Of a stretch of 53,804 nt of DNA, positions 16,964 to 53,804 are shown in pieces; the stretch's first letter is position 1; each line of letters starts with the position of its first letter. The stretch lies in contig JBGAIQ010000040.1 in the NCBI GenBank assembly GCA_044225365.1, forward strand, positions 1 through 53,804, in the 5' to 3' direction. The stretch is from Planctomycetota bacterium (lineage in GTDB: Bacteria; Planctomycetota; B15-G4; JADJEK01). The position numbers were made by a program, and so were the translations under genes. A model generated the notes under the pieces. That model did not search any database, was not told the DNA's origin, and saw only the letters and a list, made by a program, of their open reading frames with translations.

Positions 16964-17051
16964 GCGAAAAGGGCGAATCGATCCGTAGAATGCGTCGCCG
17001 CACGATCGGGCGCGCCGTGCCGCTGTCGCGCGCCCTACGAAATGCGCGAGG

Positions 17052-18299: not shown

Positions 18300-18406
18300 G
18301 TGGACGACTCCCCGAGATTCGGAATCATGCGTACGATATCCGATTCCAGGAGCGAGAACAGCGAGCGACGAAGCGGTTCCTCGTGTTCGTCGCACGGAGG
18401 AGCGTC

Positions 18407-20629: not shown

Positions 20630-20662
20630 GATCGTTTTCGTAATGAGTTACAGGAGTGACTC

Positions 20663-21300: not shown

Positions 21301-21327
21301 TGAAACGATCCGCGCCGCGGCGACAAT
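21301..21327 (+). promoter_or_regulatory. Bipartite promoter-like motif, ECF fusion 4
   Basis: TGAAAC-N13-GCGACAAT-N7-GTG. Confidence 0.65.
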
Positions 21328-21334
21328 GAGCGTC

Positions 21335-24300: not shown

Positions 24301-24610
24301 TCTCGACGCCACGGTCGGCGGGACCCTGCAGTCCGAAGGATTCAGCCAACTCGCGGCCGGCGTGGGAGCGTTCTACGCAGCTTCGGGAAATGGCGCGTAT
24401 CGGTTGTTGTGGACCAAGTCTCGCCAGGATGGCGACAAATACGAAATGGGTGGGACGGTGCCAGTCGGGGCGGGGAAATGGCGCTTCTGCTTCCTCGCGG
24501 GAGCGACGGATGCCGCGCCCGAGACGCTGCCCGTGTGGGCGGAAGGGGACTACAGCGTCGACATCGATCAGACGGCGAAGATCGCTCTTCCCAGCGCACC
24601 TCGTCGTTGA
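21335..24610 (+). CDS. ECF sigma-TM-beta-sandwich repeat fusion (paralog 4, divergent C-terminal region)
   Basis: AEDLVQQTFITAIERA, REIATGLHRAPALVRLQLHRGM, TM KKAIVVGSACILALCAVIAV, repeated G.V.D..G.PV..A.V...TDA.GRF. Confidence 0.85.
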   Translation: MDHDDLTHLFLRFRDRADSDALAEVFDRAAPSLLRVGAHLLGDAIGAEDLVQQTFITAIERAKTFRQDAPLRPWLFGILIRHARNERRRRERARPRSAPPENSPSACDDASNAELRREIASALDSLSAPYREVVTASLLDEAKPREIATGLHRAPALVRLQLHRGMQFLRDLLSRRGAPAWIVLEPTRGVRGIASLRHEILLNARHAASPAAWSAKVGAAGSGLSLGSWIMGKKAIVVGSACILALCAVIAVEALRSTAEAKPIAVAAMPVVATLAPTPAPEPVVAAPIERTIAVADPPRVLEPLTDQASRGDGVVVGRVVIGDSTEAVADARVAAWVGIDTGRPTCEALTDSEGSFRLTSVDFLSTVFLTIDAEGFSTRSVGLDEAAPNSTSRDGELNLGLLRIERGESVEGVVRDSTGVPVRDAEVRIADAYGPASTFLPAGTRHGAVTDASGRFEIRNVAPTRENNLWRIYAVAKGEIGGVRIRVPRGIGSVKDCEIRLSPVSSLKVHVANENGEPIAGAQVQAEPRFEPWIEMRYLNGKGPEPVHGMKFGSLPSISGLFTATTDARGNASLPRLPSRRNDLSGEQPALYDVFVRAEGRQDGAADGIPLEVGKIGEAGKEREVTIALEPLQLRSIEGTITGSDSHPVADATVYLSRVDGGRRWLRYPDARSDALGRFRFDGIAALGEFHVGTRPIDCLPFSTSVEISAKSPLTLTVDLRARRSYTIQGRLVDQFDHGVPYAMLEADDPEAKPGVSSTMTRTGPDGSFELWTPLPGEQTIHGRQFEFPAGQWTDSAPSWTAKGGARNVKLVVQRAAKGVCEVTANIVDALDGSKVDVKNAWFEPDPSGDTRVQVRPTISIGRVVANELAAGAWTLRLATAEHAPFDYRFTIAPGSRSERFDVAIPRPAILRVRIALPAGKERECFVGSSRGICHADGGEVRGFRVKAGETTSMLATAGPVTLTVEGRRLLAEPRVVEAKVGESFEVVLDATVGGTLQSEGFSQLAAGVGAFYAASGNGAYRLLWTKSRQDGDKYEMGGTVPVGAGKWRFCFLAGATDAAPETLPVWAEGDYSVDIDQTAKIALPSAPRR

Positions 24611-33300: not shown

Positions 33301-33630
33301 CGGACCGCCACGCTCCAGCGTGGCATTCTTTCGACGGATGCCAGGCAGAGCCTGGCGGTCCCAGTCCTCGGACCGCCACGCTCCAGCGTGGCCAACGTCG
33401 GGCCATGCCAGGCAGAGCCTGGCGGTCCCAGTCCTCGGACCGCCACGCTCCAGCGTGGCCAACGTCGGCCCATGCCAGGCAGAGCCTGGCGGTCCCAGTC
33501 CTCGGACCGCCACGCTCCAGCGTGGCGGACGTTGGCCCATGCCAGGCAGAGCCTGGCGGTCCCAGTCCTCGGACCGCCACGCTCCAGCGTGGCATTCTTT
33601 CGACGGATGCCAGGCAGAGCCTGGCGGTCC
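33301..33630. repeat. Tandem array of five 67-68 bp units, each an inverted pair of REP-like hairpins (BIME/REPIN-like)
   Basis: Unit: CGGACCGCCACGCTCCAGCGTGGC, 12-13 nt linker, ATGCCAGGCAGAGCCTGGCGGTCC, CAGTCCT; starts at 33301, 33369, 33436, 33503, 33570. Confidence 0.9.
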
Positions 33631-33741
33631 CGGGCTCCGTCCATTGCGTGAGGGCGCCTTTCTTGTAGGATCGAATGCTTCCGCCTCACCCGAGAAATCG
33701 AGCGCCGAAACGAGCGCTCGATCGAGCCCCTGAGACTCCGC

Positions 33742-36934: not shown

Positions 36935-39238
36935 ATGCGTCGCCTTCGCGCCTTCCGGCGAGCTGCTGCTGCAGCGCTCGTCGCGTTCAGTCCTTCCTTG
37001 CACGCAACTCCCCCCAGCATCGTCTTCCTCGGCGGTGGCCACGAGGACATCGCCGATCTCGCCGTCTCGCCGGACGATCAGTACATCGCGACCGCGAGCT
37101 TCGGCGACTCGACCGTCAAGCTCTGGCGCGTCGCCGATGGCCAGCTCGTGCGCACGTTCGCGGCGCACGTCTCGGGCGTCCACTCCGTCGCGTTCTCGCC
37201 GGACGGCAAGACTCTCGTTTCGGGCGGCGAATTCGTTTTCGGATCGAACGTGCAGGCCGTGATCCGGTGGAACATCGCCGACGGCCAAGTCCTGAAGCAG
37301 TACGACACCGGCGCGCAGGGCGCGAACGCGGTCGCGTTCTCGCCCGACGGGACGAAGATCGCCGCTGCGCTCACGAGCAGTGCGACGCGCGTCTACTCCG
37401 CGGCCACCGGGCAACTGCTGTTCACCGCGCAGAGCAGTACATTCCAGGCGTTCGCCGTCGCGTGGTCGCACGATGGGTCGCGCCTCGCCGTCGGCTACGG
37501 CAACGATCACCTCGTGAAGCTGTTCAGCGGCGCGAATGGGGCGCTGCAGAAGACGCTCACCGGCCACACGTTCTTCGTGACCGGCGTCGCGTTCTCGCCC
37601 GACGACCAGACGCTCGCGACCTGCAGTTGGGATCAGACTGCGCGAGTGTGGAACACCACGACGGGAGCGCTCGTGAAGACGATCAGCCCGAACGCGGACG
37701 CGCTCGAGAGCATCGACTTCTCGCCGGACGGTCAAAGCGTGCTGCTCGCATGCCTCGATTCGAAGGTTCGACGCATCCGAGTGTCCGATGGAGTGGTGCT
37801 CCAGAGCTTCACCGAGCCCGATATCGAAGTGCTCGACGTCGCACGCTTCGCGCATGACGGTCAGTCGATCTGGTCGGGTAGCGGCGATGCGCACGCGCGG
37901 CGCTTTTCGATCGCATCGGGGCAACTCGCAGCGAAGGTGGGGCATCACTCGGCAGCGATCGGCGGCGTGGCGGTCGCGGCCGACGGCTCGCAGATCGCGA
38001 CGTCGAGTCACGACCAGACCGTTCGGCTGTGGGACGCCACGAGTGGCGTCGATCAGAAGACCCTCGTCGGGCACCACGACATCATCAACTCGGTGTCGTT
38101 CGATCCGAGCGGAACGAGGATCGCGTCGGCGGCGGGATCTCCGCCTCCGGACACAAAGGATCCGACGATCAAGCTGTGGAGCACGACGACGGGCAGCACC
38201 CTCTTCACGCTGCCGGGACACACGGGAGGATCGTTCGGCGTCGCGTGGTCGCCCGTTGTCGGCGCCGAGCGCATTGCGTCTTGCGGTTCCGACAAGTCGG
38301 TCAAGCTGTGGAACAGCGCGAACGGGACGCTCGTCGCGACGCTCCTCGGCCACACGAGTGAGGTGCATGGCGTCGCGTACTCCCCCGACGGCTCGAAGAT
38401 CGCTTCGGCGAGCTACGACGGAACCGTTCGAGTGTGGGACGCGCAGAACCAGCAAGCACTGCTCACGATGACCGAGCCGACGAGCGGCGGGCTCACGTGC
38501 GTCGCGTGGTCGAAGGACGGCACGAAGATCGCCGCCGGCGTCGCGCAGTACGGCGACAACGTTCGAGTATGGAGCGCGACGAGCGGCCAGTTGCTTTCCA
38601 CGTTCTCCGATCCCAATGGATTCGTCCAGAGTGTCGCGTTCTCGCCGGATGGCTCGAGCGTCGCGAGCGGTTCGGGCTACTCGCGCGAAGTGCGCGTGTT
38701 CTCGCTCGCAAGCGGCCAGCTCACGGAGGATCTCACGAGCGAGACGGGATGGGGGAGCGACGTGACGCTTCCCTTGACCTACGCGCCGAACGGTCGACTC
38801 GTCTTCGGTCGCAGCGATGCGACGCTCGTGGTTGCGGGCTGCAAGTCGGTGGCGACGTCGTATGGGACGGGCTGCGCCGGCTCGGGCGGCGCGATCCCCT
38901 CGCTTGCCTTTTCAGGCTGCGCGACTCCGGCGGCGCCCGTCGCGATCTCGATCACGTCCGGCCTCGGCGGTTCACCCGCGCTCGTGTTCTTCGGTGCGTC
39001 GCAGGCCGCGGTCCCACTCCCCGGCGGGTGCATTCTCGGCGTGTTCCCCGTCCTGCCGACGCCCCTCACGTTCGTGCTCGGCGGCAGCGGCGCGGGCCAG
39101 GGAACGATCGTCGTTCCCGGTGCGATCCCGGCGGGTACACCGCCGGGGTCGTTCGCGGCGCAGGCCTTCGTGCTCGATGCCGGGGTGCCGCGGGGATACG
39201 CGGCGACCAATGGAATCGCAGTGACGATCGCGAACTGA
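36935..39238 (+). CDS. Secreted WD40-repeat protein with shared C-terminal domain
   Basis: Many GH...V..VAFSPDG..LA..S.D.TV..W repeats; signal-like N-terminus. Confidence 0.9.
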   Translation: MRRLRAFRRAAAAALVAFSPSLHATPPSIVFLGGGHEDIADLAVSPDDQYIATASFGDSTVKLWRVADGQLVRTFAAHVSGVHSVAFSPDGKTLVSGGEFVFGSNVQAVIRWNIADGQVLKQYDTGAQGANAVAFSPDGTKIAAALTSSATRVYSAATGQLLFTAQSSTFQAFAVAWSHDGSRLAVGYGNDHLVKLFSGANGALQKTLTGHTFFVTGVAFSPDDQTLATCSWDQTARVWNTTTGALVKTISPNADALESIDFSPDGQSVLLACLDSKVRRIRVSDGVVLQSFTEPDIEVLDVARFAHDGQSIWSGSGDAHARRFSIASGQLAAKVGHHSAAIGGVAVAADGSQIATSSHDQTVRLWDATSGVDQKTLVGHHDIINSVSFDPSGTRIASAAGSPPPDTKDPTIKLWSTTTGSTLFTLPGHTGGSFGVAWSPVVGAERIASCGSDKSVKLWNSANGTLVATLLGHTSEVHGVAYSPDGSKIASASYDGTVRVWDAQNQQALLTMTEPTSGGLTCVAWSKDGTKIAAGVAQYGDNVRVWSATSGQLLSTFSDPNGFVQSVAFSPDGSSVASGSGYSREVRVFSLASGQLTEDLTSETGWGSDVTLPLTYAPNGRLVFGRSDATLVVAGCKSVATSYGTGCAGSGGAIPSLAFSGCATPAAPVAISITSGLGGSPALVFFGASQAAVPLPGGCILGVFPVLPTPLTFVLGGSGAGQGTIVVPGAIPAGTPPGSFAAQAFVLDAGVPRGYAATNGIAVTIAN

Positions 39239-39911: not shown

Positions 39912-42388
39912 GTTCGGAATGGGGGAATTGGGAGCGCGTCGCGGCGATCGTCGACGATTTGCTCGAACTTCCGAGCGCCGAGCGCGACGCTTCGATCGAG
40001 AGCCGTTGCGGCGACGACATGGAGTTGAAAGGCGCCGTGCGCGAATTGCTCGCGTCGATCGCGAGCGCCGAAACGGACGACTTCCTCGCCAAGCCCGCCG
40101 CCGTCGAACACGGTTTTCCCGAGGATCCGATCGCTACGAGTCTCGAGGGATCGGTCGTTGGCGGATTCGAGATCGGAGCCGTTCTCGGTCGAGGCGGGAT
40201 GGGCGTCGTCTTTGCCGCGAAGCAGAAACAGCCCGATCGACAGGTGGCCGTCAAGGTCCTCCGCCCGATCCATGCGTCGCGCGACGCGATCTCCCGGTTC
40301 GAAGTGGAGGCCGAGATCCTCGGCCGACTGCATCATCCCGGCATCGCGAGCGTCTTCGCATCCGGTATCCACCGCTTCGAAGGCGACGGACTCGCGTTCG
40401 TTCTGCCGTGGTACGCGATGGAGTTCATCGACGGCGCGCGCACCCTCACGGAGCACGTTCGCAGCGAAGCGCTTCCGCGATCCGCGCGCTTCGAGTTGTT
40501 CGCGCGAGTCTGCGACGCCGTCGCCCACGCCCACGCGATGGGAGTCATCCACCGCGACTTGAAGCCGGCCAACATCCTGGTCGACCACGACGGCCATCCC
40601 AAGGTCATCGACTTCGGGATCGCGCGCGCGCTCGGCGCCGATGGCGAGGCGAGGACGCGACATACCCACACCGGACAGTTGATCGGAACGCTGCGCTACA
40701 TGTCGCCCGAGCAGATCGATGGCGATCCGCGGCGCATCGACGTGCGCTGCGACGTCTACGCGCTCGGAGCGATCCTCTACGAGATCCTCGCCGGGCGGCC
40801 TGCCTTCGCGGTCGATGAATCGAGCATCGTCGATGCGATCTCCATCCTGCGCTCCTCCGAGCCTCTCGCGCTCTCCAAGATCGACCCCACGCTGCGCGGC
40901 GAACCCGAGTGGATCGTGCTGCGGGCGATGGAGAAGGACGTAGGACGGCGCTACGCGGGCGCCGCCGCTCTTCGCGACGACTGCAAACGCCTGCTCGCCC
41001 ACGAAGCGCTGGAGGCCGGCCCCCCGAGCGGGATCTATCGCGTCGCGAAGTTCGCGCGCCGCCATCGCGTCCTCGTGGGAGCGATCACGAGCGTCGTTCT
41101 CGCCCTCAGCGTCGGTCTGATCGCGACTCAGCGCGCACTGCAGCGAGCGATCCTCGCCGAAGCGAAGGCGACCGACGAAGCGACGACCTCGAATCAGGTC
41201 GTCGAGATGTTCCGCAGGGTCTTCGATTCGGCCTGCACCCAGAACAAGGGGCGCGAGCTCAAAGTGGTCGACGCGCTCTCCGACGCGGCCAGCTTCACGA
41301 TCTCCGAACTCTCGGCGAAGCCATACCTCGCCGCGCGGCTCATCGCGCAGATCTCGGGACTCCATAGCTCGCTCGGCAATCTGAAGGAGTCGCTCGAACT
41401 CGCCGAGCGCTCGATCGAACTCCTCGAGGCGGACGGACGACGGCTCACCGACGACGCGCTGACGATGCGCATCTCGGTCGTCGAATTGCGCGAGCGTCTC
41501 GGTGACTTCGATGGCGCCCGCAGGATGCTCGACGAATCCGAAGCGCTCGCGGCCACGTTCCTGCCGCCCGAATCCGCAGCACGCATCGATCTCGAGTTCG
41601 AACGCGGACTCCTGTTCGTGCGCAAGGGTGATGCGACGGCCGCCGAGCCCGTACTGCGCGCGGTCTGCGCAAGACGCGAAGCGCTCCTCGGAACGGACGA
41701 CGTGAACACGATCGCCGCGTGGAGCACGCTCAACGTCGTGCTGCTCGATCAGGGGAAGTTCGCCGAGGCCGAACCGATCGCGCGCCGATCGCTCGAGCAG
41801 ATGGAGCGCCTCCGGGGCCGCGACGATCCGGCATCGATCACGATGCGGGTCAATCTCGCATCGCTCCTCGGCGAAGCCGCCATCGGCAAGTATGCCGAAG
41901 CGCGCGATCAACTCATCGAAGCGCTCTCGTCGTACGAGCGAGTCACCGGTCTCGACTTCCCGGATGCCATCCTTGCCCTCGTGAACCTCGGCACGATCCG
42001 CAGCAGTCTCGACGAGAACGATCAGGCCATCGCCGATCTCGACACCGCGTGCGGACGCGCGAAGAACAAGTTCGGCCCCGCGCATCCGACGACGCTTCAA
42101 GCCATCTCCGCGCTTGCTCGCGTGAAGCTGTCCCTAGGCCGAATCGAGGAGGCGGAGAAGTCGCTCCGCGACGCCCTCGCCGCCGCGGCCGCGGCCTCGC
42201 AGGAACACGACATCATGTTCTTCCGCCTGCAGGCGACCCACGCCGACGCGCTGCGGCGGCTCGGCCGCACCGACGAAGCGCGCGCGCTCCTCACGGAAGC
42301 CCACGCGAAAGTGCGCCTCGCCCTCGGCGACGACGCCCAGGAAGTGCAGGACATGGCCGCGAGCCTGCGCAAGCTCGGGGCGAATTGA
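39908..42388 (+). CDS. Ser/Thr protein kinase with TM helix and TPR repeats
   Basis: LGRGGMGVV, VAVK, HRDLKPAN, DFGIA, YMSPEQ, C-terminal TPR-like repeats; ATGA overlap with the ECF gene. Confidence 0.92.
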   Translation: MSSEWGNWERVAAIVDDLLELPSAERDASIESRCGDDMELKGAVRELLASIASAETDDFLAKPAAVEHGFPEDPIATSLEGSVVGGFEIGAVLGRGGMGVVFAAKQKQPDRQVAVKVLRPIHASRDAISRFEVEAEILGRLHHPGIASVFASGIHRFEGDGLAFVLPWYAMEFIDGARTLTEHVRSEALPRSARFELFARVCDAVAHAHAMGVIHRDLKPANILVDHDGHPKVIDFGIARALGADGEARTRHTHTGQLIGTLRYMSPEQIDGDPRRIDVRCDVYALGAILYEILAGRPAFAVDESSIVDAISILRSSEPLALSKIDPTLRGEPEWIVLRAMEKDVGRRYAGAAALRDDCKRLLAHEALEAGPPSGIYRVAKFARRHRVLVGAITSVVLALSVGLIATQRALQRAILAEAKATDEATTSNQVVEMFRRVFDSACTQNKGRELKVVDALSDAASFTISELSAKPYLAARLIAQISGLHSSLGNLKESLELAERSIELLEADGRRLTDDALTMRISVVELRERLGDFDGARRMLDESEALAATFLPPESAARIDLEFERGLLFVRKGDATAAEPVLRAVCARREALLGTDDVNTIAAWSTLNVVLLDQGKFAEAEPIARRSLEQMERLRGRDDPASITMRVNLASLLGEAAIGKYAEARDQLIEALSSYERVTGLDFPDAILALVNLGTIRSSLDENDQAIADLDTACGRAKNKFGPAHPTTLQAISALARVKLSLGRIEEAEKSLRDALAAAAAASQEHDIMFFRLQATHADALRRLGRTDEARALLTEAHAKVRLALGDDAQEVQDMAASLRKLGAN

Positions 42389-42541
42389 GCGCCGGCTCGC
42401 GGCCACGCGCGCCGGCGTCTTCACGCGCGCCGTGATCGTCCTTGCGGTCGTAGGCGTTCCCGGATACGTTCACACCCCCTGTCGAGGCGTTGACCCCAAG
42501 GAAGCGATTTCACCATCGCTCCCGAGCCTTGACTCGGACAA

Positions 42542-42619
42542 CGGGCCGTAGCTCAGCTTGGCTAGAGTGCTTGCTTGGGGTGCAAGAGGTCGGGAGTTCA
42601 AATCTCCTCGGCCCGACCA
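42542..42619 (+). tRNA. tRNA-Pro(GGG)
   Basis: Acceptor stem CGGGCCG/CGGCCCG-A-CCA, anticodon stem CTTGC/GCAAG with loop TTGGGGT, T-loop GTTCAAATC. Confidence 0.95.
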
Positions 42620-42725
42620 GACATAAAAGAGGCAGCAGAGGGGGGTTCGAAGCCCCGCGAAGGTCAAAGTGACCCCCCTCCGCTCCTGTTTCTACGCCAC
42701 GTTTACGCCATGACTCCAAAAGGGC

Positions 42726-44051
42726 ATGGCGACGCGGAAGCTCGAAGGAGCCCCGCGGTGGAAGGAGCAGGAGCCAATGCAGATTCGCCACACCAGCCCG
42801 CCCCAGATCGTTTGGAAGGAGCGCGTCGGCGACCGTTGGGTCGGACGCACGCTCACCGTCAACGCGAAGAACCTCGAGGCCTACGGCATCGCCGCGCCCG
42901 CGAGTCGGGATCGCAAGGCGATCACGCCGTGGCACGCGAAGCGATTGCTGAACGTGCTGCGCGACCTCGAGCGCGAAACCCGAGAGAAGGGTCACGATCG
43001 GCTGCGCATCACCCTGCGCGAGATGATCGACATCTTCCTCACGAACATGCGGGTCGCGCCCGGCTTTGGTCGCCGCCGCGAGCGCGCGCTGCGATCGGGG
43101 GCGAAGATCACGATCGACGAGAAGGGAAAGGAGAAGCGGCCGCCGAACCTCAAGCACGTCGACATCAGCCTGCTCTCGTCCGTCGGCGACCTTCCGCTGC
43201 GATCGATCACGAGCGAGCACGTGCTGCGCCACCAGCGATTCCTCGAGTCGCAGGGCTACGCGCCGATGTCCGTCCGAGGCTTCCTGCTCGACGTCCGCGC
43301 GCTGTTCAACTACGCGGTGCGCCACAACTACCTCGACCGCAGCCCGGCCGAGCGCGTCACGCTGCCGCCGAGCGAGCCGACGTCCGGCCTGCGCTTCCTG
43401 AGTCAGGACCAGATCGACAAGCTCCTCGAGATCGCAGGCGACCCGTTGAAGTACGACCCGGACAAGCGCAACCATCTCGAGCGATCCACGAAGAAGGGTC
43501 GCAGCGGCTTCCTGCCGGCGATCGGCAACAACGTGATCTCCCAGGTCCTTCCTGGTTTCCTCTACCTCGGCGTGCGGCGCAGCGAGCTTTGCCGCATTCG
43601 CTGGAGCGACGTCGACTTCGAGCGAGGCATCGTCCGGATCCGAGGCGCGCGCAAGAATCCGGCGCGGGTGGAGCGCATTCGCGAGTTGCCGATCCCCAAC
43701 CAGTTCTTGCCATTCCTCAGCAGTCGCCCACGGACTTCCGAGTTCGTGTTCACGAACTCGACGGGCAAGCCGTGGAACGTAAATTCGCTTGGGTCGGCAT
43801 TGCGCCACTTCGTGGAGACCCATCACGAACGGCTCGGCTTCGACTTCGACTTCCAGACCCTGCGGCGAACCTATGGTTCGACTCTGTACGGCAAGAGGTT
43901 GTCGATGGACCAGATCGCGACATTCCTTGGACACTCCGACGTTTCGACGACCCGCACGTGGTACGTGAGTCTGAAGGCCGAGGATCTTCGTGAAAAGGTT
44001 ACGGCAGCGTTCGCTTCGAGATCCGGCCGGAAGGCGACGGCATCGACCTGA
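42726..44051 (+). CDS. Tyrosine recombinase / integrase
   Basis: LYLGVRRSELCRIRWSDVDF, FQTLRRTYGS, LGHSDVSTTRTWY; SAM-like domain upstream. Confidence 0.92.
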   Translation: MATRKLEGAPRWKEQEPMQIRHTSPPQIVWKERVGDRWVGRTLTVNAKNLEAYGIAAPASRDRKAITPWHAKRLLNVLRDLERETREKGHDRLRITLREMIDIFLTNMRVAPGFGRRRERALRSGAKITIDEKGKEKRPPNLKHVDISLLSSVGDLPLRSITSEHVLRHQRFLESQGYAPMSVRGFLLDVRALFNYAVRHNYLDRSPAERVTLPPSEPTSGLRFLSQDQIDKLLEIAGDPLKYDPDKRNHLERSTKKGRSGFLPAIGNNVISQVLPGFLYLGVRRSELCRIRWSDVDFERGIVRIRGARKNPARVERIRELPIPNQFLPFLSSRPRTSEFVFTNSTGKPWNVNSLGSALRHFVETHHERLGFDFDFQTLRRTYGSTLYGKRLSMDQIATFLGHSDVSTTRTWYVSLKAEDLREKVTAAFASRSGRKATAST

Positions 44052-44608
44052 ACAGCGGCATTCAATACGAGCGTTGCGGTTCGATCCGCCCTTCAAGCTC
44101 ACTCGTTCTGTCGTCGTTGGACCGATCGATATTCTTCGCGGCGAAGCGCGACGCCTTCGAAGCGGCGGTACGCGGCTTTTGGCGAGGTGCGCAGTACGCC
44201 CGCTGCTTCGTCGGTGGCGACTGGCTTCGTCGTTAGCTCGCCGGCGACACTCGCGTGGTCTACATTCGGCTGAGCCGCTCGAATGCGACGACCCCGGCGC
44301 GGTCGTCTCGTACCGTGTCGCTCTGCTCACTGCCGACCTAGACGGGAGGCGCGTCCACGAGGTCCAGGTCTCGGCGCATGGTGGGATCGGGATCCGCTCG
44401 GCGGAGTGCTCCGCTCGTGGTTCCTGCACGTCCAGCAGACCCGCGGCAAGTCCTTCACGTTCAAGGTCGACTTCGAGCCCTTGCGCCGCTCGGACCGCTC
44501 GTTCCGCGATCACTCCGGGTTGGCATTCGATGAAGCCGTGGAGCTTCAATGCGTGGGGCACGTGAACGCGGCACGATGTGGAGACGTCTGACTTCACGTG
44601 AACAGTCA

Positions 44609-44854
44609 TCACGGACGAGAGGCGGCGGCCTTCCGCTGACGTCGAAAAGGGGGCCGTCGAAACGTCGAGCTGGAATCGATCCAAGCGACGAGTTCGTCTC
44701 TTCTGACCAGGTAGGTTTGCCCGATCTTTCGGGCGGGCATGCCGAGCCGGAGGTAGCGGTAGATGGTCTTGGGGCGCTTGCGGAGCACCTCGGCGACCTC
44801 GGGGATCGTCAGATATATGCTCCGCAGGTCAGTCAGGGTACCGTTGTCATTCAT
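44609..44854 (-). CDS. Excisionase-like HTH protein (HTH_17 type)
   Basis: YLTIPEVAEVLRKRPKTIYRYLRLGMPARKIGQTYLVRRDELVAWI. Confidence 0.85.
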   Translation of the reverse strand: MNDNGTLTDLRSIYLTIPEVAEVLRKRPKTIYRYLRLGMPARKIGQTYLVRRDELVAWIDSSSTFRRPPFRRQRKAAASRP

Positions 44855-45608
44855 GGCGATTGTTTGTCAAGTAGCGTTGCTGGGGTAGATGAGACGCGAG
44901 CGGGAGCTTCTGAGATTCGCGCCAGGATTGAGAAGAACGGGAGCCGCAAACGGTTGAATCTCGATGATCGACGAGTTCGAGATTCTGAGATTCCAGCTCA
45001 CTGATCGCTCTCGCTCGCGAATCCGCGCCCGCATCGCCTTGATTTGTTATAGGAAACCTACGACAACTAAGGAGCCATCCATTCGGCCATATCGTGAGAG
45101 CGTGTCGTCTCCGGCGTCCTGCACGTCGATGACTCATAATCGAGTCTCGTGCCAACAAGCACGCGCGAATGCCGAAACACGCTCTCGCCGAACAGACTCC
45201 GCAGCATCGAGGTCGCTGTCAAAGGTTCTCCTGCGAAAAAGTCGTCAAAGCGAGCATGGATCGACCGCGACCCTCTGTGATCGCTCCGATTCTGCCCCTG
45301 AACTTGAGCCCGGTTGAGATCGGTTGGGCGCTCATGGATATCCGAAGGTACGTGAACTAGAATCCTTTCAGATAATCAAATCTCGCGTTCACGCGACGAT
45401 TCGGACGTCCATGTCCGTCGCAGGTTTTTTCCCGAATTGACTCTCGAAGGACACTCATCGCGCAGGGCGAATTCGGCACCTGGCGAGAGAATCTTGAATT
45501 GCCTTCTGAGCGTTCACTTACGCGCCGAGCGCGCGAATGGATCCTCTATCGAATGGCGACACTCTCGCCAGGACTGCACAAGATTTTCTCAGCTTTCTTT
45601 GACCTGGC

Positions 45609-46910
45609 TTGGTTGACGTCACGTCATTACCGGCTGGAGCGATACCTGTCGTATCGCCAAATTCACTCGACCACCCAGTACAAGGCAATCCCTCGATGAC
45701 CCATTCCATTCCTCCGATGTGCATCGACTTCCCCGACGACCCTCGCAAGCAAGATGCTTGTATAACAGGCCCCCAGCCCCTTCTCCGAGTCGTCGCAACC
45801 GGGATCGATACCGCCGTTTTCTCGGCCTACGGCAACATCCGTCCCGAAGCACTGGACGCAATGCGAGCCTGCGTCGATCGCTCCCTCGATTCCGAGCCTG
45901 GCGAAGCTCTCTTCAAGATCGCGAGGACTCGACATCTTGTCTACCATCGTCGAGATACCGAGCTTCATCTCGAAGCGCCGTGCCAGTACCACGTGAAACT
46001 CCGCACGACTGCGACGAGACTCCCGACCGCCGAAGTCACGCTGCGGTCGGAGTTCCTTTGGAGTATCTCCTTGGCGGATGCTCTTGAGCGCGTCGGCGAG
46101 GTCCTGGACTGGTTGATCGAGTCACCCGATTGTGCCCTGAGCCGCCTCGAGCTTGCCGTCGACGTTCAAGGCGGGGGGTTCTCGCTGCGTAACCTCCCAG
46201 CGCATTCGGACCCGCGCTGGGCGTCGAGTCTCAAACGGCGCAAAGGGGAGTACCACAATTCTCAGCCGATTGAGCTCCGCTTCGGATCACGCAGAAATGT
46301 CGAGGTCATGGTCTACAACAAGTCATACCAGGTCGAGAGGAAGCCATTCGCGGAGTTCATTTGGAAGATTTGGGAAGACAACGGTGGCTCGAGGACGGCC
46401 GAGACCACAAGGGTCGAGGTTCGAGTCACACGTGACGAGATCGCTGAGAGTTCAGTCCGAGAACGCGGCCCGATTCAAAAGAAGGCTCCCGCGATACTCG
46501 CCTATGCGAACGAACTCTGGCAAAAAGCCACTTCGAGCTGGCTGTGCCTGCTCTACCACCCATCGAATCGGCCACCCAAAGCACGGGATTGGCCTACCGA
46601 TCCCCGATGGCGGGTCATTCAGAATGAGCGATTCAGCTCGGAGCCGCCGCCGGTGCCGCGCATCTACCGACCGTCATTCGACATGGACAAGAACCTGTGC
46701 AGCATCGCTGGCTACTTGACGAGCTTCGCGGCGATGAGGCGAATCACCGATCCGGAGACTGTGCTTTCGATTCTTCAGAAGGAACTCGAGAAGCGTGGAC
46801 ACCTGCTCAGCATCGCGTTCAGGCGGCGCGTTGAACAGAAGATGGCTCGATATGGGGTCTTCCCAATCGATGACGATCGGTGTGAGGAAGGTCCGCCAAC
46901 GGCATCTTGA
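45609..46910 (+). CDS. Replication initiation factor-like protein (Rep_trans-type); true start uncertain
   Basis: Ordered motifs GIDT, LSRLELAVD, LRFGSR...VYNKS, RVEVR match the xRxDxAxD / Y.GS...YxK / RxE series of this family. Confidence 0.65.
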   Translation: MVDVTSLPAGAIPVVSPNSLDHPVQGNPSMTHSIPPMCIDFPDDPRKQDACITGPQPLLRVVATGIDTAVFSAYGNIRPEALDAMRACVDRSLDSEPGEALFKIARTRHLVYHRRDTELHLEAPCQYHVKLRTTATRLPTAEVTLRSEFLWSISLADALERVGEVLDWLIESPDCALSRLELAVDVQGGGFSLRNLPAHSDPRWASSLKRRKGEYHNSQPIELRFGSRRNVEVMVYNKSYQVERKPFAEFIWKIWEDNGGSRTAETTRVEVRVTRDEIAESSVRERGPIQKKAPAILAYANELWQKATSSWLCLLYHPSNRPPKARDWPTDPRWRVIQNERFSSEPPPVPRIYRPSFDMDKNLCSIAGYLTSFAAMRRITDPETVLSILQKELEKRGHLLSIAFRRRVEQKMARYGVFPIDDDRCEEGPPTAS

Positions 46911-46963
46911 GAAACCGAGATTCGAGATCGCGCAGATTGAGCACGATGGATCGTGCGTCGAGC

Positions 46964-48685
46964 TCAATCTGTGAGATCGAGTCGAACAGCATTGGAGTTC
47001 GAGAATCCTGCAGCCGCGCCAGCATCCAGGATGATCCCCTGAACGAAGATGGAGATGTCGCCAACGACATTTGGGACAAGGGCAGTGATCGAAAGCGACC
47101 CGGAACCGGGTGCCATCGAGCCCAATGGAAAGAGCAGAAGCGGACCAAGCAGATTCGGCAGCAGCGGGTAAGTGAGAAGCGTGCATCCGTGTCCCATGGG
47201 AATCGCAGACTGATTCGTGCCGACTCCGAGGAAGAGTTCGCCGCCTCCGACACCCTGGCCGACCTGAAGCTGCAAGGTCGAGCCGGATAGGGTACTCCCA
47301 GACGCATGAAGGAACGGAACGATGTTCCCGCTGCCCGGACAACCCGAACCGAAGTGAACGATCCCCTTCGTCGCATCGAACGCAAAGACGTGACCGCCGG
47401 CTCCGGGATACGCCACGTTCTCGGAACTCGCTCCGACGAGCAATTGTACGGAACCGATCGCGACTGAAGTTCCGAGCCCGGAGTTCGCGATGTTCGTTGG
47501 CGCCACGAGTTCGGCCTCGGGGACGAACTGTCCGTTCGGCGCCTTCACGAACGAGAATGCTCGCCCGACGTTGTCGCTCGGCGGTCCATCGCAGAAAGTC
47601 TGTCCGACGAGAAGCAGGGAGTCTCGCAGGTCGATCGACGCTCCGAAGGATGAGAAGCTCGGCGCGGCCGGACTCTGGAGCGATTGCGTGCTCGACCAGA
47701 TTCCGGTTATCGAATCGCGTCGATAGATCGAGACATGGCCTGTCGAGCCGAGAACGACGTCTCCACGGCTCGAGACCGCCATATCGTTTCCATCGAGTGA
47801 AACTGCGACTCCCAGAAGATCGTGGACGCCGGCAGTTCCGTAGATCGCCTGCTGCATGATCCAGGATCCCGACGCGCGTTGGAAGACATACGTCGCGCCA
47901 TCGGAGTTCGCATGTCCCGGCGCACCCACGACGATGGTGTCGCCGTCGAGATCGACGGCGGAGCCGAAGTTGTCGAAGACCGCCGCGTCGGGGGCCGTCA
48001 AGATGGCCGTCGGGAGCCAGACGCCTCCGATTCGCTCATAGACGTGGACGGTTCCGATCGTGCCGAGAATGGGATCGCTCTCCTCGGGCGAGCCGACGAC
48101 CAACGTCGAGCCCGCGAGCGAAACTGCGGAACCGAAGTAGTGGGCCGACGTGTACGGGCCGACGAACTGGGCAACCTGGGACCAGCCAAGGTTCGTTCGT
48201 CCGAAGACAAAAACGGCGCCGGTATTCTCGTGGGTCGCATCAAGCGAAAATGACGGTGCGCCTACGACAGCGACGTCTCCGTCGATTCCGACAGCGCCTC
48301 CTGCGGAGATTCCATTCTCGGGTACCGCCGGATCGAGCCGTGCTTCGAGAACCCATGCGTCTCCTTGCTGCCGGTAGACGTTCGCGAACCCGTTCGTCGG
48401 GTTCTGGGTGCTCGACGGAGAGAGGGTGTCGGGAGCTCCAACAATCCAGCGAACGCCATCGCAACTCATCGAGTAGCCGAATCGATCGAGCGGGTGGCTT
48501 GTCGGGGAGGTGAACTCGATCGAATGGGTGGTTGCCGTTGGAAAAGGCAGGGTCGCCGCATCCGCCGATCCCAAGGCAGCGGCCGCACATGCCAACCCGA
48601 CGGATAGGACCCACCATCGCCATGATCGCCAGCCGAACTTCGTGTCGCCTCCGCCATAGAGCGCGTGATTCTTCTGGGTACTCAT
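46964..48685 (-). CDS. Secreted FG-GAP (integrin-like beta-propeller) protein with shared C-terminal domain
   Basis: Repeats FG.AV.LDGDT.VVGAP...G.V.VF.R; signal-like segment; ends FVQGIILDAGAAAGFSNSNAV. Confidence 0.85.
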   Translation of the reverse strand: MSTQKNHALYGGGDTKFGWRSWRWWVLSVGLACAAAALGSADAATLPFPTATTHSIEFTSPTSHPLDRFGYSMSCDGVRWIVGAPDTLSPSSTQNPTNGFANVYRQQGDAWVLEARLDPAVPENGISAGGAVGIDGDVAVVGAPSFSLDATHENTGAVFVFGRTNLGWSQVAQFVGPYTSAHYFGSAVSLAGSTLVVGSPEESDPILGTIGTVHVYERIGGVWLPTAILTAPDAAVFDNFGSAVDLDGDTIVVGAPGHANSDGATYVFQRASGSWIMQQAIYGTAGVHDLLGVAVSLDGNDMAVSSRGDVVLGSTGHVSIYRRDSITGIWSSTQSLQSPAAPSFSSFGASIDLRDSLLLVGQTFCDGPPSDNVGRAFSFVKAPNGQFVPEAELVAPTNIANSGLGTSVAIGSVQLLVGASSENVAYPGAGGHVFAFDATKGIVHFGSGCPGSGNIVPFLHASGSTLSGSTLQLQVGQGVGGGELFLGVGTNQSAIPMGHGCTLLTYPLLPNLLGPLLLFPLGSMAPGSGSLSITALVPNVVGDISIFVQGIILDAGAAAGFSNSNAVRLDLTD

Positions 48686-48728
48686 CGCCTTGCTCCCTTG
48701 CTCGAGTGAGGATTCTCCAATGATGACG

Positions 48729-48758
48729 ATCGTCCACGGTCCATCGACCGTGGACGAT
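48729..48758. promoter_or_regulatory. Perfect 13-bp inverted repeat, probable operator
   Basis: ATCGTCCACGGTC-CATC-GACCGTGGACGAT between the divergent FG-GAP and XRE genes. Confidence 0.65.
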
Positions 48759-49050
48759 GAGCATACCAGATCGCGATCTTGTCGGCATGGTCGACGAGCA
48801 GCGAGCTAAGGCGATGGCGCGTGCCTTTGGGCAGGCCGTCAAATCACGCCGAGAGAAGCGCGGGATCGCTCAGGAACGGTTCGCATTCACCTGCGAGCTC
48901 GATCGGACGTTTGTCGGAGGCATCGAACGAGGGGAGCGAAACCCGAGTCTCGAAACGGTTCGGCGCATTGCGCGTGGCCTCGGCATTTCGATGACCGCTC
49001 TCGTTCGAGATGTAGAACGTATCCTCCACGACACCGAAGATGGGAGTTGA
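48757..49050 (+). CDS. XRE HTH regulator resembling restriction-modification controller (C) proteins; start may be 48787
   Basis: FGQAVKSRREKRGIAQERFA...LDRTFVGGIERGERNPSLETVRRIARGL. Confidence 0.88.
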   Translation: MSIPDRDLVGMVDEQRAKAMARAFGQAVKSRREKRGIAQERFAFTCELDRTFVGGIERGERNPSLETVRRIARGLGISMTALVRDVERILHDTEDGS

Positions 49051-49634
49051 CAGGTGCCTCCCGGAGAATGAGACGATTCTTTCGTTCCGATCCCGCTTTG
49101 GCCCGTCCGTCGCGTGCGGAGCCGATCGGCAGCCCCAGGGAGAAAGGGGCGCACGTGGCGATGGGGGTAGTCAGCCGGGGAGGGGTGCTGTTCGGATCGC
49201 TACGGCGGGCATCAAGGCACGCGGAGTGAAGGCGGTCAGTTGGAACTGAGTGGCGATGGCAGACGATCTGTACCTGGCTCAATTCGTGAGACTGTACGAG
49301 TTCGCCGCGACCCGAAGGATGGCAGCGGTTGCCCCGCGAAGGATGTCGTCGCCGCGACTCTTGGGGACCGATCACAAAGAAACGCGGGGGTTCCGCGCAG
49401 GCTTTGCGGGAAAGATCAGGTCGCCGCGGGTTCTGAGGATCGCCTACACATGTCGGACCTCTTGGCGGGCACCGGCAAATCTCGGGTCGCCGCCGGGCAC
49501 TTTCTCGAGCCGCCGCGACGCGCGCAATAGTCGATAGACGGCGTCAAGAACGGCAGGGTCGGGGTCGTCCTACTTGGCCAAGCCACGGCTGCTCGAGATG
49601 CGCCGATCGATAACACGAATCGATAGAATCTGCT

Positions 49635-50828
49635 GTGCACAACAAAACGCAGTTCGAGTCAATTGGCGTGAACACCCGGAACAGCGCGAAAGCGGAATCT
49701 GATTGGCGTTACGGCTATTGCTTCCCAAACCTGCAGCTGCGCGACGGTGAACGATTCGAGGTTCGGGAACTCGCCGTCGTCGGACCTACAGAGCAACGAG
49801 TCCTCGCCGCGGTGGCGGACCCAGCCGAGCCGGCGGTTAGCTGCCTGCATCGGTCGTTCCGGACGTCTCGACGGGAGAGGTTCGAGCCGTCCGTACTTCT
49901 CTTCAGGACAAATCAGCCACATAGTCTTTCGAAGGACGCGATCAAAGCTTTCCGAGATGCGGTCGCGATTGCGTGCCTGACGGGTGCCCGAGCACGAATG
50001 CTGGGCAACCACGGACAGTGGGAGTGCGTGTGGTCCGACTTCTTCGACTTCCACCCGATTGGTCCGACGGCGGACGGCAAAGACCTGATGTCGCTCGACT
50101 CCATCGTGCTCGCCTTTGACCCGGTGGGGAAGTACCGATTTCAGCCCTCACCGATGATCCTCAACCCGACTCACTTTCGAGTGGTCCATGATGAGGCGCT
50201 CTGGCCTCTGCTTGCTCGAGCATGGCGACTGCGCTTCTCGCTCCGAAGTCACAGGGGATTGCTGCGGCGCCTCTTTCGCGCGCTCGAGATCGCATTTCAT
50301 GCCTGTCGGTTTCCAACGGATGGGATCATGACGCTGCATGATGTTGGAACGCGCATCGCCCTTTGGATCAGCGCATTCGAGGTCCTGTTGCATCCGGGAA
50401 AGGCAGGCAGGGTCGATGAACCGCACGTGCTGCGCTTCATCGAGAAAATGGCGTGGACCGACACCGCGCTTCGGAGACCTCGGGGGAGGATCTCCTTGCA
50501 GAAGGGCAAGCTCTCGTTCAAGGCGACGCTCGCCATGAGGCTCTACCATGCGGCCTACAGAGCGAGAAACGACTTCACCCACGGGAACGAGGTCGCGGTC
50601 AGCAAGCTCATGTTCGGCTCGGGAGAGAAGAAACGACTCGACTACGTTCTGCCTGTCCTATTCGGTTCGGTGCTCGTCGCATGGCTCAAGGAACAGCTTC
50701 CGAGCTGCTGGGTGGATGATAAGGGGGAGTACATCCGCCGGCGCGGCATGAAGGAACACATCGATCTGTCGATGCGCGAAATTCCAGCCGCGAGAGATCG
50801 AGAAGCAGCACTTCTCACGCTGATCTAG
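49635..50828 (+). CDS. HEPN-domain protein (ApeA-like architecture), putative RNase
   Basis: LWISAFEVLL helix followed by AYRARNDFTHG (RxxxxH) in a helical C-terminal half. Confidence 0.7.
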   Translation: MHNKTQFESIGVNTRNSAKAESDWRYGYCFPNLQLRDGERFEVRELAVVGPTEQRVLAAVADPAEPAVSCLHRSFRTSRRERFEPSVLLFRTNQPHSLSKDAIKAFRDAVAIACLTGARARMLGNHGQWECVWSDFFDFHPIGPTADGKDLMSLDSIVLAFDPVGKYRFQPSPMILNPTHFRVVHDEALWPLLARAWRLRFSLRSHRGLLRRLFRALEIAFHACRFPTDGIMTLHDVGTRIALWISAFEVLLHPGKAGRVDEPHVLRFIEKMAWTDTALRRPRGRISLQKGKLSFKATLAMRLYHAAYRARNDFTHGNEVAVSKLMFGSGEKKRLDYVLPVLFGSVLVAWLKEQLPSCWVDDKGEYIRRRGMKEHIDLSMREIPAARDREAALLTLI

Positions 50829-52479
50829 GGGCATCGGCGAGAGTCGAGCAAACCACCAAGCTGACGCGCCACCCCGTCCCATTCGGCGCCTTGCCGTAAA
50901 TGCCAACCTTCTGACCGAGGTTCCCGATCGAGGCCGTCCCGATGAAGTAGGGCGAGGAGGCGCCACCCTCGAACGCATTCCAGTCGGTGGGATCGAGCGA
51001 CCCTCCCCAGAAGACCTGAATCGTGTTGTCCGACTTCACTCGAACCCGAAGGACCCTCGCCACCGAATCGAGCGCCGGGTCCGCGGCCACCGAACCGATC
51101 TCGGTGGGTGCACCATCGACGCCGCTGGCCCGCAAGACGAGGAAGCACTGCCCCCGATCCGTGACGTACACGATGTAGGCGTTGTCCTTATCCGTCGCCC
51201 GGAACATCACGCCGACCTCGCACGCTGTCGCGTCCGGCGTCGATACTGCGTCCTTCAAGACCTTCACCGCAACGTTCAGATCCGTCGCGAGGTTGCCCCC
51301 GACAATCGCATAGTCCGCACCACCCGGCGAGTCGTCGAGCGACGCCTGTTGCGACACGATCGTGAAGCCGTTCCCCGACCCCGCCTTCTGGTCCCAGGTC
51401 TCACCCGCGGAAGAGGTCCCGAGAGTGGAGGCGTTTCCCCGGTTGAAGGCGTCTCGGAAGTCCTTCGGCCGCTGCAGCGAAACTCCCGAACTCGTCGTCG
51501 CAGGGAAATCCTCCCGCCGCACGTCCACGAGTTCCGGAATCTGACCCACGGCGAAACTCTCGGGCACGATCGCCGCGGAGGACTCCGCCGTCAGGTAGCC
51601 GTACACTCCCTGTTGGGTGTGCACGAGGGCGTACGCCTCGTTCGTCCCGTCGAACGCGACGTGCGTGCCGCTGCGCGGCGCGAACGGCAGCCAGAGGCCC
51701 GCAAGAGCGTACCAGCGGTAGGCAAGGCCCGAAGCGAGGACGAGCCGCGTGTCGCCGTCCTGAATGCCCGAGGAAGGCAACAGCGACTTGCTGAGGACCG
51801 GGGGACCCCACAGGCCGATGCCCGGTTGGTCCTCCGCCCCGCGCACCCAGTTCGGCTGCCAGCGCGCCGCCGTGTCCTGAATCGGGTACAGGTTCCTGTT
51901 CTTGCCGTAGGCGCCCGTCTGGAACCCCATCACGATCGACGTTGCGTCCGAGTACCCAGAACCCGAGGGACGCTCGAACTTCACCTTGCCCGTCGCGGGG
52001 TTCGTCGTCGCACCCTGGATCAGGAGGCCCGTCGCCGTCGCGTACGCGACCGTCGAGCCCATCGCCGTGTTGATCTTCGCCACGATGTCGGCGAGCGTCC
52101 GCGCGTTCTGCGCGCTTCCGCCACCCGTGGACAGGTCGATCATCGTCGGACCCACGGCATCGACCGTCAACTTGATGAACTTCGCGTAGGTCAGGTCGAA
52201 GGTGCCGAGGCCCTTGCCCTGGATCCGCGCGTACCGGTCCACGCGCGCTTGGACCCGATTGTCCAAGTACGGCGTCGCCGAGGGGCGCTCCCACCAGCGC
52301 CGTCCCACCGTCGGCGTCGTCCCGACCAAGGTGTACGGGTAACTGATCCCGCGCTTCGCGAGCGCGAGGACGAGGTCCTTCGCGTCGCCACCACCTCCGG
52401 TGACGTTGTCCACCGAGACCGAGGAAACGGTCGGGTCCGTGCTCGTCGAGCGGATCAGCAAGTACCCCTCGAACGCGTT
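50815..52479 (-). pseudogene. Fragment of a probable phage virion structural gene
   Basis: About 550 codons with strong codon bias, Gly/Thr/Ser rich; no convincing start or RBS; 3' end runs into the end of the HEPN gene; adjacent to the capsid gene on the same strand. Confidence 0.5.
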
Positions 52480-53804
52480 ACGGAATGTGTCGACGTGAAT
52501 GAGGCCGGTGACGCGGGGATGCAGTGCGCATCGATATCTCTCATTGGGTGGTTCAAGGAGAGGGTTTTTCGCCGTTTAGATCGCTCATTTCTTTCACTTG
52601 GCTCGCAATGCCGTGAAGCTCGTCGAGATGACTCTCGGGGTAAAACCCGAGAAGGAATGGATTCTGGTGATTCGGTTCGGTGCATCGACTTCTCCGCTGA
52701 GATTCCAGTTCCCGATCCGATGCGAATAGATTCCGCCAGCGACTCGATGATATTGCAGACCTGGAGGCCCGCCACCACCCAGTTCGTCATGCAGCGCCGA
52801 GTCGCGCGGAACACCTGCGAAGAGTTCAGGATCAACGTGTCCACGAACGTCTTCTTGTGCTCCTCCCACGACACGCCGAAAGGAACCGTCTTGTCGAACG
52901 TGACGTTGCCTGCCGACGCGAAGTTGTAGAGGTCGTTGATGACTTCCCGGTCGATCTCGAACCGGATGATCTGCGCCAGCGCCGCGCCGATCTCCGCCTG
53001 TGCGTCGAGCCCGTGCAGTGCCTGCAGGTCCTGCGCCGCCTTCAGCGAGTGCCGACCACGGATCTTGCGCTCCTTCGCCTGCAGCGCCGCCGAGGTGATG
53101 TTCAGGTCCACCTGCGGAATGACGTCCGAGGCTTCCCAGTCGTAGGCGTACGTCGCCGTCGCCGCCGAAATGTTCTCCGTGAAGTCCAGCGTCACCGTGC
53201 CGTCCGAGTACGTGATCGCCGAACCGCCACCGATCGTCGGCGCCGCACCCGACGTCTGCGACAGCAGGATGATGCCACCGGCGCCGTCGTCACCGAAGAT
53301 GCCCACGCCCGTCGCGTACGTCACCGTCGCCCGGAACGTGCCCGGCTTCACCGGCGAGTACGCCAGCTTACCGCCCGTCGCGCCGACCGCGTTGTTCGAC
53401 GAGATCGTCATCACCTCGTTCGGAATCGTGTTCGAGGAGAAGTTCTCGACGTTCTTCGGACCGGTCCGCGCATCGAACAGCGCGTCACCCGAAGTGACAT
53501 CGCCCTTCGTCGTCCCCGCCAGGAAGTCCATGTAGAACACCAGCGACACCGGTCCCGCCATCGGCTGCACCGACACGATCTCCGAAGAGATCAGATTCGG
53601 GTAGATCGCCCGAATCATCGGGAAGGCGTACTTGTCGAAGTTGCCGATGTTCAGCACCTTCGTCGTTTCGAGCAGCGAATCCGGGTCCTTCCCCGACTCC
53701 CGGAAGTGCTTGTACTGGTTCTGGAACAGGATCGCGACCAGCGTCTTCTGCGGGCCAGAGAGACCGTCGCACAGCGCCTCCCACTTCGAGTGGGGGTGTG
53801 TTGC
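52455..53804 (-). pseudogene. T4 gp23-family major capsid protein, 3'-truncated (similarity ends near 52734; frame open to window edge)
   Basis: KWEALCDGL...VAILFQNQ, FPMIRAIYPNLISSEIVSVQPMAGPVSLVF, AKERKIR...AAQDLQALHGLDAQAE...IRFEIDREVI, NWVVAG; expected C-terminal VY.D / GYKG / YAPY / TRY motifs absent. Confidence 0.85.

Follow-up and report, generated by a model that had tools for sequence, protein, structure and literature searches.

An integrative island at a tRNA-Pro gene of a Planctomycetota bacterium, with probable accretion, decay and pieces of phage genes

Why does a small island with an integrase, an excisionase and a replication initiator, inserted at a tRNA gene, run into cut pieces of phage genes? 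The question is raised by contig JBGAIQ010000040.1 from a Planctomycetota bacterium. The window analysed here is this entire contig of 53,804 bases, the end of which falls inside a capsid gene. A preliminary description of the sequence had listed tRNA-Pro, integrase (int), excisionase (xis), initiator (rep), an FG-GAP protein, an XRE regulator, a HEPN protein, a virion gene fragment and a capsid fragment in this order, and all of them were found at the positions claimed. Our analysis indicates that the locus is a tRNA-targeted integrative island with accretion and decay, and that its integrase family, its HEPN family and the phage group behind the pieces are undescribed. With moderate confidence we read the site as a tRNA-Pro(GGG) hotspot, at which serial integration was followed by deletion and the phage pieces are the remains of a prophage. 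This reading is favoured by a relic of a second integrase, by stacked elements in related loci, by layers of codon usage, by the collinear order of the phage pieces, by the unrelated sequence at the end of the capsid fragment and by the absence of the pieces from both related loci.

Integrases and att core at tRNA-Pro(GGG)

The island begins at a tRNA-Pro(GGG) gene (42542-42619, forward strand), the only match in an Rfam scan. It is followed by an intact tyrosine integrase (42777-44051, forward; Pfam PF00589, E 1e-17), which has 424 amino acids when read from Met18 of the open reading frame (ORF) at 42726; this start was placed by alignment. The usual motif of tyrosine recombinases is H-x-x-R. 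In all 12 aligned members of the present family (relatives P0168-P0178) a Gln stands in the place of the His (Q-x-L-R-R); the exchange is therefore a family trait and no sign of decay. Two of the 13 named matches are from Planctomycetota, and the best matches in the phage collection reach about 21-26%.

One genome scan with the integrase alignment resulted in two related loci, L002 and L003, both in metagenome-assembled genomes of Planctomycetota. The spans seen were 8 kb for L002 and 10 kb on each side for L003, and the comparisons below refer to these two loci (n = 2). In a quick tree the intact integrase grouped with P0168 as sister to the L002 clade, with starred support. The L003 integrase lies downstream of an intact tRNA-Pro(GGG) gene, and both relatives use this tRNA. 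The L002 integrase sits behind a 51-nt tRNA 3' half (L002 3114-3164), which is identical in 48 of 51 nt to the 3' end of the window tRNA; this defines the last ~50 nt of the tRNA gene (42569-42619) as the att core of the integrase family. Behind the tRNA gene there is a conserved region (42637-42710, forward) with a G-rich/C-rich inverted repeat, behind which a 7-nt unit is directly repeated (two copies, 42693-42710). The pair of 7-nt repeats is exact in L002, and we regard the repeats of the region as candidate arm-type sites. No second exact pair occurs in the window.

All genes of the preliminary description are present, but it overlooked a relic which adjoins xis. Here the 3' part of another integrase gene from this family survives in decayed form (44221-44608, forward; protein-level match at 44409-44576). 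It scored 14.4 bits against the hidden Markov model (HMM) of the family, a value reached by none of 200 shuffles. On the DNA level the score was 141.5 against the L002 integrase gene (0 of 100 shuffles) and 74 against the window's own (2 of 100), with 66 of 94 nt identical to the former versus 54 of 94 to the latter. The relic keeps 39% of 28 conserved integrase columns, and its catalytic motifs are eroded. Convergent on it is the gene for an excisionase-like helix-turn-helix (HTH) protein (44609-44854, reverse; HTH_17 at E 2e-11, TIGR01764 at cut-off), with 69% identity to the L002 and 51% to the L003 excisionase. The 3' ends of int and xis overlap in both relatives; in the window 557 bp separate them, and the relic lies in this gap. 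Because the relic resembles the L002 integrase more than the intact integrase next to it, the site was probably hit at least twice, with a deletion afterwards. The simplest reading is two arrivals of one integrase family followed by a deletion. In the following we call the layer of the intact integrase A, and that of the relic and xis B. Other gaps gave no comparable signal: the profile score of 44052-44340 was reached by 37 of 200 shuffles and that of the gap between the XRE and HEPN genes by 106 of 200, while the weak 1.7 bits of the xis-rep gap (2 of 200) were left uncounted.

Codon usage separates the layers as well. The GC content at third codon positions (GC3) is 0.85 in int, 0.61-0.74 in xis, rep and cargo, and 0.86-0.90 in the phage pieces. 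The codon usage of int is host-like, in contrast to that of xis, rep and cargo, and its bias between G- and C-ending codons equals that of the host (p 0.49). In both phage pieces the bias is shifted in one direction; it is unlike that of the host (p 1.5e-5 and 2e-18) and unlike that of int (p 0.02 and 6e-10). The idea that the intact integrase is the phage's own was rejected on the basis of codon usage and because both located relatives sit in small elements.

The right end of the island was sought as a duplicate of the tRNA-Pro 3' end, a check that the preliminary description had proposed. The attL side is present; the 11 kb downstream hold no duplicate. The best match to the 49-nt core has 23 mismatches and no shared 12-mer, and a repeat finder (run on window and element), scans for the tRNA 3' end and a scan for arm repeats gave nothing above chance. 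The attR is beyond the contig end or deleted. An att-like boundary near 50.85 kb, which had been named as a sign of two unrelated elements, is likewise absent at this level of mismatch. What is found at 50.85 kb is a sharp step in codon usage (GC3 from 0.71 to 0.86), about 30 bp or less from the HEPN stop and at the end of a cut gene.

Stacking at tRNA-Pro(GGG) is not unique to the window, since both relatives have stacked integrases. In L002 the tRNA-half att core lies between two different integrases. L003 has its second integrase 4.3 kb further on, and behind this come a helicase-PLD gene and a methylase. The replication modules differ, with a Rep-like gene in opposite orientation in L002 and AAA_25 plus a primase-like ORF in L003. 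The whole L003 segment (11223-21215) comprises this AAA_25 helicase/primase-like module, HTH and MerR-like genes, the second integrase, the PLD-helicase and an N6 methylase, as in restriction-type defence. The second element of L002 (1-3167) is left of the att core, and its tyrosine integrase reads away from the core. This left element contains a 235-aa ORF (306-1013), without a match in Pfam or PHROGs, which carries what we take to be a TerS-like motif; the element may represent a genuine satellite inserted at this tRNA.

The phage gene pieces

The contig ends in a fragment of a gp23-family major capsid gene (52734-53792, reverse; PF07068 at E 1.5e-42, 146.8 bits for a cut-off of 24.4), which covers profile positions 25-365 of 465. 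Its closest relative, P0001, has 75% identity; within the phage collection LIS04 gave the best gp23 match, at 32%. Beyond 52734 the identity to P0001 collapses, and the frame continues for about 90 unrelated codons to a stop at 52455. The fragment is not full-length: the family median is 472 aa, and about 100 C-terminal residues are missing, among them 26 columns that at least 90% of its 40 nearest relatives conserve. Over the span that it covers, the fragment keeps 90% of 77 conserved columns. The median in the 40 relatives is 97%, the closest has 93%, and two of the 40 intact proteins score as low as the fragment. In a quick tree, from which the partial sequence P0007 was left out, its branch length of 0.16 is the same as that of its intact sister. 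Neither this nor the second phage piece has an internal stop. The last 12 nt of the contig (53793-53804, reverse) are off the family pattern, with four residues unlike the consensus and two of four codons ending in A versus 2% in the gene. This weak, post hoc signal possibly marks a further junction, or else noise at the contig end.

The parent of the capsid fragment was likely a large phage; close gp23 relatives occur on contigs of up to 191 kb. More distant gp23-like genes (22-27%) are found on plasmids of 45-128 kb (seven records), on one of which an integrase gene and a baseplate gene also occur; this makes a temperate parent plausible. A 45 kb plasmid (NC_018680), probably a phage-plasmid, has its gp23-like gene beside a baseplate gene and a diversity-generating retroelement (12830-20699).

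The second piece (50815-52518, reverse) is internal to a virion-type gene for a protein of ~1,030 aa. Its 548-aa ORF spans 50815-52461 and the homology about 50860-52518. The ORF aligns at 42-45% to residues ~120-655 of proteins with 1010-1042 aa, and is therefore cut at both ends. It starts in the middle of a repeat, at a conserved internal Leu codon and without an ATG. The best full-length relative among 1.84 billion representatives has 45% identity, though a closer one could hide in its own cluster. The family had no match among 50,697 phage records, and a sequence search of the PDB gave nothing useful. The last 215 residues are predicted to form a ConA/legume-lectin sandwich, and the piece ends about 12 codons past this domain. 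The domain matches the receptor-binding domain of TM4 gp23 (Z 16.8, rmsd 2.7, 176 aligned), a match tied with the non-viral lectin-type domains of mouse galactocerebrosidase and CBM66; the best viral matches are minor tail proteins. On this fold, and with a model of middling quality (pLDDT 69.9, pTM 0.44), there is good reason to predict that the 548-aa ORF is of the virion tail type.

Between the two pieces lies a low-GC linker of ~215 bp (52519-52733; 53.5% GC over 52491-52735), which had no homologue in either phage-piece family or in any collection searched, phage and plasmid DNA included. Of 200 shuffles, 179 and 178 reached its HMM scores as a mutated C-terminus of gp23 and a mutated N-terminus of the tail protein, respectively, and neither origin is recognisable. 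A copy of the HEPN 3' end, as a 14-nt match suggested, was rejected: 28 of 300 shuffles did as well, and unrelated windows did better. An 8-nt motif shared with the xis-rep gap, equalled in 12 of 100 shuffles, was rejected too. At 52455-52461 the tail-type piece has its TTG start, 4 nt ahead of the point where the gp23 read-through frame stops. This closeness is probably a coincidence, because the codons there are conserved internal ones.

Both pieces lie on the same strand in head-then-tail order, as in LIS04. Further phage functions were not detected: no TerS was matched by PHROGs among 11 main ORFs or by Pfam in 29 gap frames, and there was no primase/helicase replication module in the window element (Pfam, PHROGs). 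The 29 stop-free gap frames, of 46 listed, had no Pfam match at E 0.1 or better, and the element DNA matched nothing in the phage and plasmid collections. When the 173 stop-free frames of at least 40 aa from 42001-53804 were compared with L002 and L003, neither phage piece was matched, and no structural genes were seen in these loci (Pfam on 16 ORFs, PHROGs on 13). Integrase relatives unlinked to phage structural genes had been named beforehand as speaking against a phage-parasitic satellite. This is the case in both loci, a sample of only two.

Initiator, cargo and host setting

The rep gene (45696-46910, forward; ORF open from 45609) had been described as a Rep_trans-like initiator. Its Pfam score remains below the cut-off (Rep_trans E 0.098, 12.7 bits for 29.6), and neither NCBIfam nor a sequence search of the PDB gave a useful match. 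Distant initiators do match, however. The protein has 24% identity to a Bacillus plasmid "replication initiation factor" in the order rep, DNA-binding gene, int (three records), 26% to gene II of the filamentous Thermus phage Zuza8 (one record) and 25% over 417 columns to the L002 Rep. From these matches it is likely a rolling-circle initiator of Rep_trans-like type. A filamentous prophage of the Inovirus/Pf type was considered and rejected, as no gene for an inovirus-type morphogenesis ATPase or coat protein was found among the main ORFs or gap frames. A 21-nt inverted repeat (46926-46978) lies between rep and the convergent FG-GAP gene.

The FG-GAP repeat protein (46964-48685, reverse; FG-GAP_2, E 6e-35) shares a C-terminal domain of ~125 aa (46964-47350) with a WD40 protein of the host (gene 36935-39238, domain 38850-39238) at 29% identity and E 3e-15. 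The shared domain, possibly a lineage-specific sorting or surface domain, has no Pfam match. It marks the FG-GAP protein as cargo of the host-lineage type; the term adhesin, used in the preliminary description, is an unproven label. Next comes an XRE-type HTH regulator (48757-49050, forward), which resembles control proteins of restriction-modification systems (best PADLOC match, E 2.5e-19). Control proteins usually precede a restriction gene. Here ~580 bp with just short, unrecognised ORFs follow (49050-49634), and this gap may for that reason be a deletion scar.

The last cargo gene (49635-50828, forward) encodes 397 aa, with the true start probably near residue 24. Pfam, PHROGs, PADLOC and NCBIfam gave no match, nor did the PDB give a useful one by sequence. 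In an alignment with 11 relatives the motif R-N-x-F-x-H-G is kept in 11 of 12 rows, the exception being the short sequence P0191; R311, N312, F314 and H316 occur in at least 90% of the rows and contain the R-x4-H of HEPN proteins. The predicted structure, a confident model (pLDDT 79.5, pTM 0.83), gave nothing in Foldseek. A fold comparison placed five proteins titled HEPN among its top seven matches; the best Z was 7.6 (rmsd 4.7, 128 aligned), a value that is common for helical bundles; it is the combination with the conserved motif that makes the match persuasive. The earlier assignment to HEPN is supported by both. One of 12 plasmid matches was inspected: this relative, with 31% identity, lies between genes annotated as AbiV and AbiH on a Sinorhizobium plasmid. 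We regard the protein as a putative defence RNase of a family without a Pfam model.

The 42.5 kb left of the tRNA are ordinary chromosome, with genes for ribonucleotide reductase, an aminotransferase, sigma-factor fusions, Ser/Thr kinases and glycerol-3-phosphate enzymes. Four paralogous proteins of ~950-1,090 aa, three of them in tandem (8186-16963 and 21326-24610), consist of an ECF-type sigma factor fused to carboxypeptidase-regulatory-like domains. An intergenic tandem repeat at 33301-33660 has about five copies of a 67-68-bp unit with internal inverted symmetry, presumably of the REP/BIME type; a similar unit opens the contig near 60-95.

Probable accretion and deletion, and related systems

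Serial integration followed by deletion would have proceeded as follows. An older layer B, with an integrase that is now the relic, xis, the Rep_trans-like initiator, the FG-GAP protein, the C-like regulator and HEPN, would have been displaced when a later element with an integrase of this family, layer A, inserted between it and the tRNA. All of A except its integrase may then have been lost in a deletion that also took the internal att site and the 5' portion of the B integrase. Further out, layer C would have been a myovirus-type prophage or a phage-derived island. Recent deletions would have taken the right att site of B and most of C, so that the end of the HEPN gene was fused to the interior of the tail-type gene and the latter was joined to the capsid stump via an unrelated scrap. 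Parts that probably still work are the integrase/xis pair, Rep and the cargo, with HEPN perhaps acting as a stand-alone defence RNase; the phage pieces would make no virion part. Such neighbourhoods have been described before: integrative mobilizable elements (IMEs) in tandem with decayed elements or prophages (PMC5704250) and tRNA islands holding degenerate fragments (10.1101/2020.12.28.424599). The proposal of nested elements at one tRNA hotspot in the preliminary description is thus supported and extended to at least two integrase layers plus phage remains.

Several points weigh against this history. Nothing else that could belong to layer C, be it a phage integrase, an att site or a third phage gene, was found up to the contig end, and no close gp23 relative is established as integrated. 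That C should be the oldest layer is awkward, because its pieces are undecayed while the relic closer to the tRNA is strongly eroded, and three or four deletions have to be placed within 3 kb and a short time. The two pieces differ mutually in codon bias (p 8e-6), and their common phage origin has to be presumed. If there is a junction 12 nt from the contig end, the gp23 fragment is internal and piecemeal capture fits equally well. Finally, cryptic prophages usually lose their capsid genes (PMC7744054).

A rival explanation is an artefact, in which assembly or amplification would have joined a host island to phage DNA of the same sample near the contig end. The arrangement is known from one contig only, three or four junctions lie within its last 3 kb, and the phage pieces are unmutated. 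However, no near-identical full-length copy of either phage gene was found, the best matches being 75% for gp23 and 45% for the tail-type piece; the junctions have no repeats by which an assembler could join them, and the integrase relic indicates that real deletions acted at the site. We therefore consider an artefact unlikely. Unlikely, too, is the possibility that the island keeps pieces of helper-phage DNA as patches of homology. The excised rolling-circle element would recombine with the phage, form concatemers and be packaged, a satellite strategy with neither pac site nor capsid protein, in which the DNA itself would be functional. The pieces (~1.06 and 1.65 kb) are undecayed and cut in mid-gene, possibly also at the 5' end of gp23; the island has a rolling-circle-type Rep, and no att site separates cargo from phage DNA. 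There is a precedent in laboratory plasmids: any SPP1 segment of more than 50 bp raised plasmid transduction 100-1000-fold, with rolling-circle plasmids packaged best (PMC5615212). Such homology-facilitated transduction is cited also for T4 and P22 (PMC5615212; PMC12115623), although the effect in T4 required phage mutants that spare host DNA (PMC12115623), and jumbo phages can move tRNA/tmRNA islands (PMC12595487). However, the case is a single observation, and neither related locus carries such pieces. Without an attR in the window their place inside an excisable unit is an assumption, layer B's own integrase is dead, and less has to be assumed if this sequence is put down to neutral deletion. 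Our literature search, which covered mostly non-subscription papers, found laboratory plasmids as the known case and no natural satellite of this kind.

Two further explanations assign a role to the encoded proteins. As decoys in an anti-phage island with HEPN, the truncated capsid would poison head assembly and the lectin domain would block receptors or tail assembly. Published defences reportedly block virion assembly, the tail piece retains the whole lectin domain and stops ~12 codons after it, and its TTG start is 4 nt ahead of the gp23 read-through stop. Set against this are the ~90 unrelated residues on the gp23 stump, the start of the tail piece in mid-repeat at an internal Leu codon without ATG, a simple scan that gave no promoter-like site, and two relatives of two without the pieces; decoys are improbable. 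Least probable is a satellite similar to the phage-inducible chromosomal islands (PICIs), which would redirect the capsid assembly of a large phage with a captured gp23. The int/xis/rep set at a tRNA, the helicase/primase-type module of L003 and the presumed TerS-like motif in the small ORF left of the L002 att, which had no library match, are in line with this. The same is true for PICI-like tycheposons, which carry a major capsid or a TerS gene (10.1101/2020.12.28.424599). This explanation is largely refuted by truncation: the capsid lacks its last ~100 residues with 26 conserved columns, the tail gene is cut at both ends, and neither gene is present in the relatives. The captured working phage parts, which the preliminary description had suggested for a satellite, are not borne out at the protein level, as the capsid runs into unrelated sequence and 0 of 2 relatives have structural genes. 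Its statement that such elements do not normally carry head genes is in turn too strong for satellites in general; it agrees with marine VEIMEs, which carry none (PMC9618062), but the PICI-like tycheposons do. The capsid stump is no equivalent of the tycheposon gene because it is truncated.

Several described systems resemble the locus. The combination of a site-specific integrase and an excisionase at a conserved target is that of an IME. The IMEs with Rep_trans/MobT (PMC5704250) share with the window a tyrosine integrase at a tRNA 3' end, xis, a Rep_trans-like protein, accessory cargo, the lack of conjugation genes and the stacking with decayed neighbours. They are from Firmicutes, whereas the window has a Planctomycetota-type host, a Rep below the Pfam cut-off, an xis convergent on int and a rep divergent from xis, and its mobility is presumed from its genes. 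Tycheposon islands (10.1101/2020.12.28.424599) also abut tRNAs and hold elements, degenerate fragments and extra material. In both systems one integrase family is combined with varied replication modules, which in the present family are Rep_trans-like in the window and L002 and AAA_25/primase-like in L003. In the accessible text the PICI-like tycheposons have a capsid or TerS gene but never cargo, while the window has cargo plus a capsid stump and an unrelated host.

The I55-type islands transduced by jumbo phages (PMC12595487; PMC12772148) are the nearest precedent for phage DNA kept as homology. Like the window, they combine an integrase at the end of a tmRNA/tRNA gene with defence cargo, lack genes for autonomous transfer and are associated with a large phage. 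They differ in having direct repeats at their bounds and demonstrated packaging, and the accessible text mentions no helper-gene fragments. Incomplete, cryptic prophages are enriched in integrase and tail-type genes (PMC7744054), and the remains in the window are likewise collinear and cut; but here a capsid piece is kept, and the integrase is of a small-element family with a codon usage unlike that of the phage pieces. The Thornevirus SP15-like phage LIS04 (OQ999172, 182 kb) has the gp23-family capsid in common with the window at 32%, compared with 75% for the closest uncultured relative; the tail-type family is without a match among the phage records, and the parent phage is undescribed. The literature search found nothing on the element family or on a gp23 prophage in Planctomycetes.

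The capture of phage DNA that is useful as DNA and not as protein is unlikely. If it were true, it would be a new route to phage satellitism; broken structural genes in islands, at present written off as debris, would have an explanation, and helper phages could be read straight from island sequences. The locus is probably a case of ordinary island build-up. It reveals an undescribed integrase family of Planctomycetota in which Gln replaces the usual catalytic His, and which targets tRNA-Pro(GGG) and occurs with exchangeable replication modules. A defence screen could reasonably include its HEPN family, for which Pfam has no model, and the capsid fragment provides a host clue for an undescribed group of gp23-family phages, the closest cultured match of which is at 32%.

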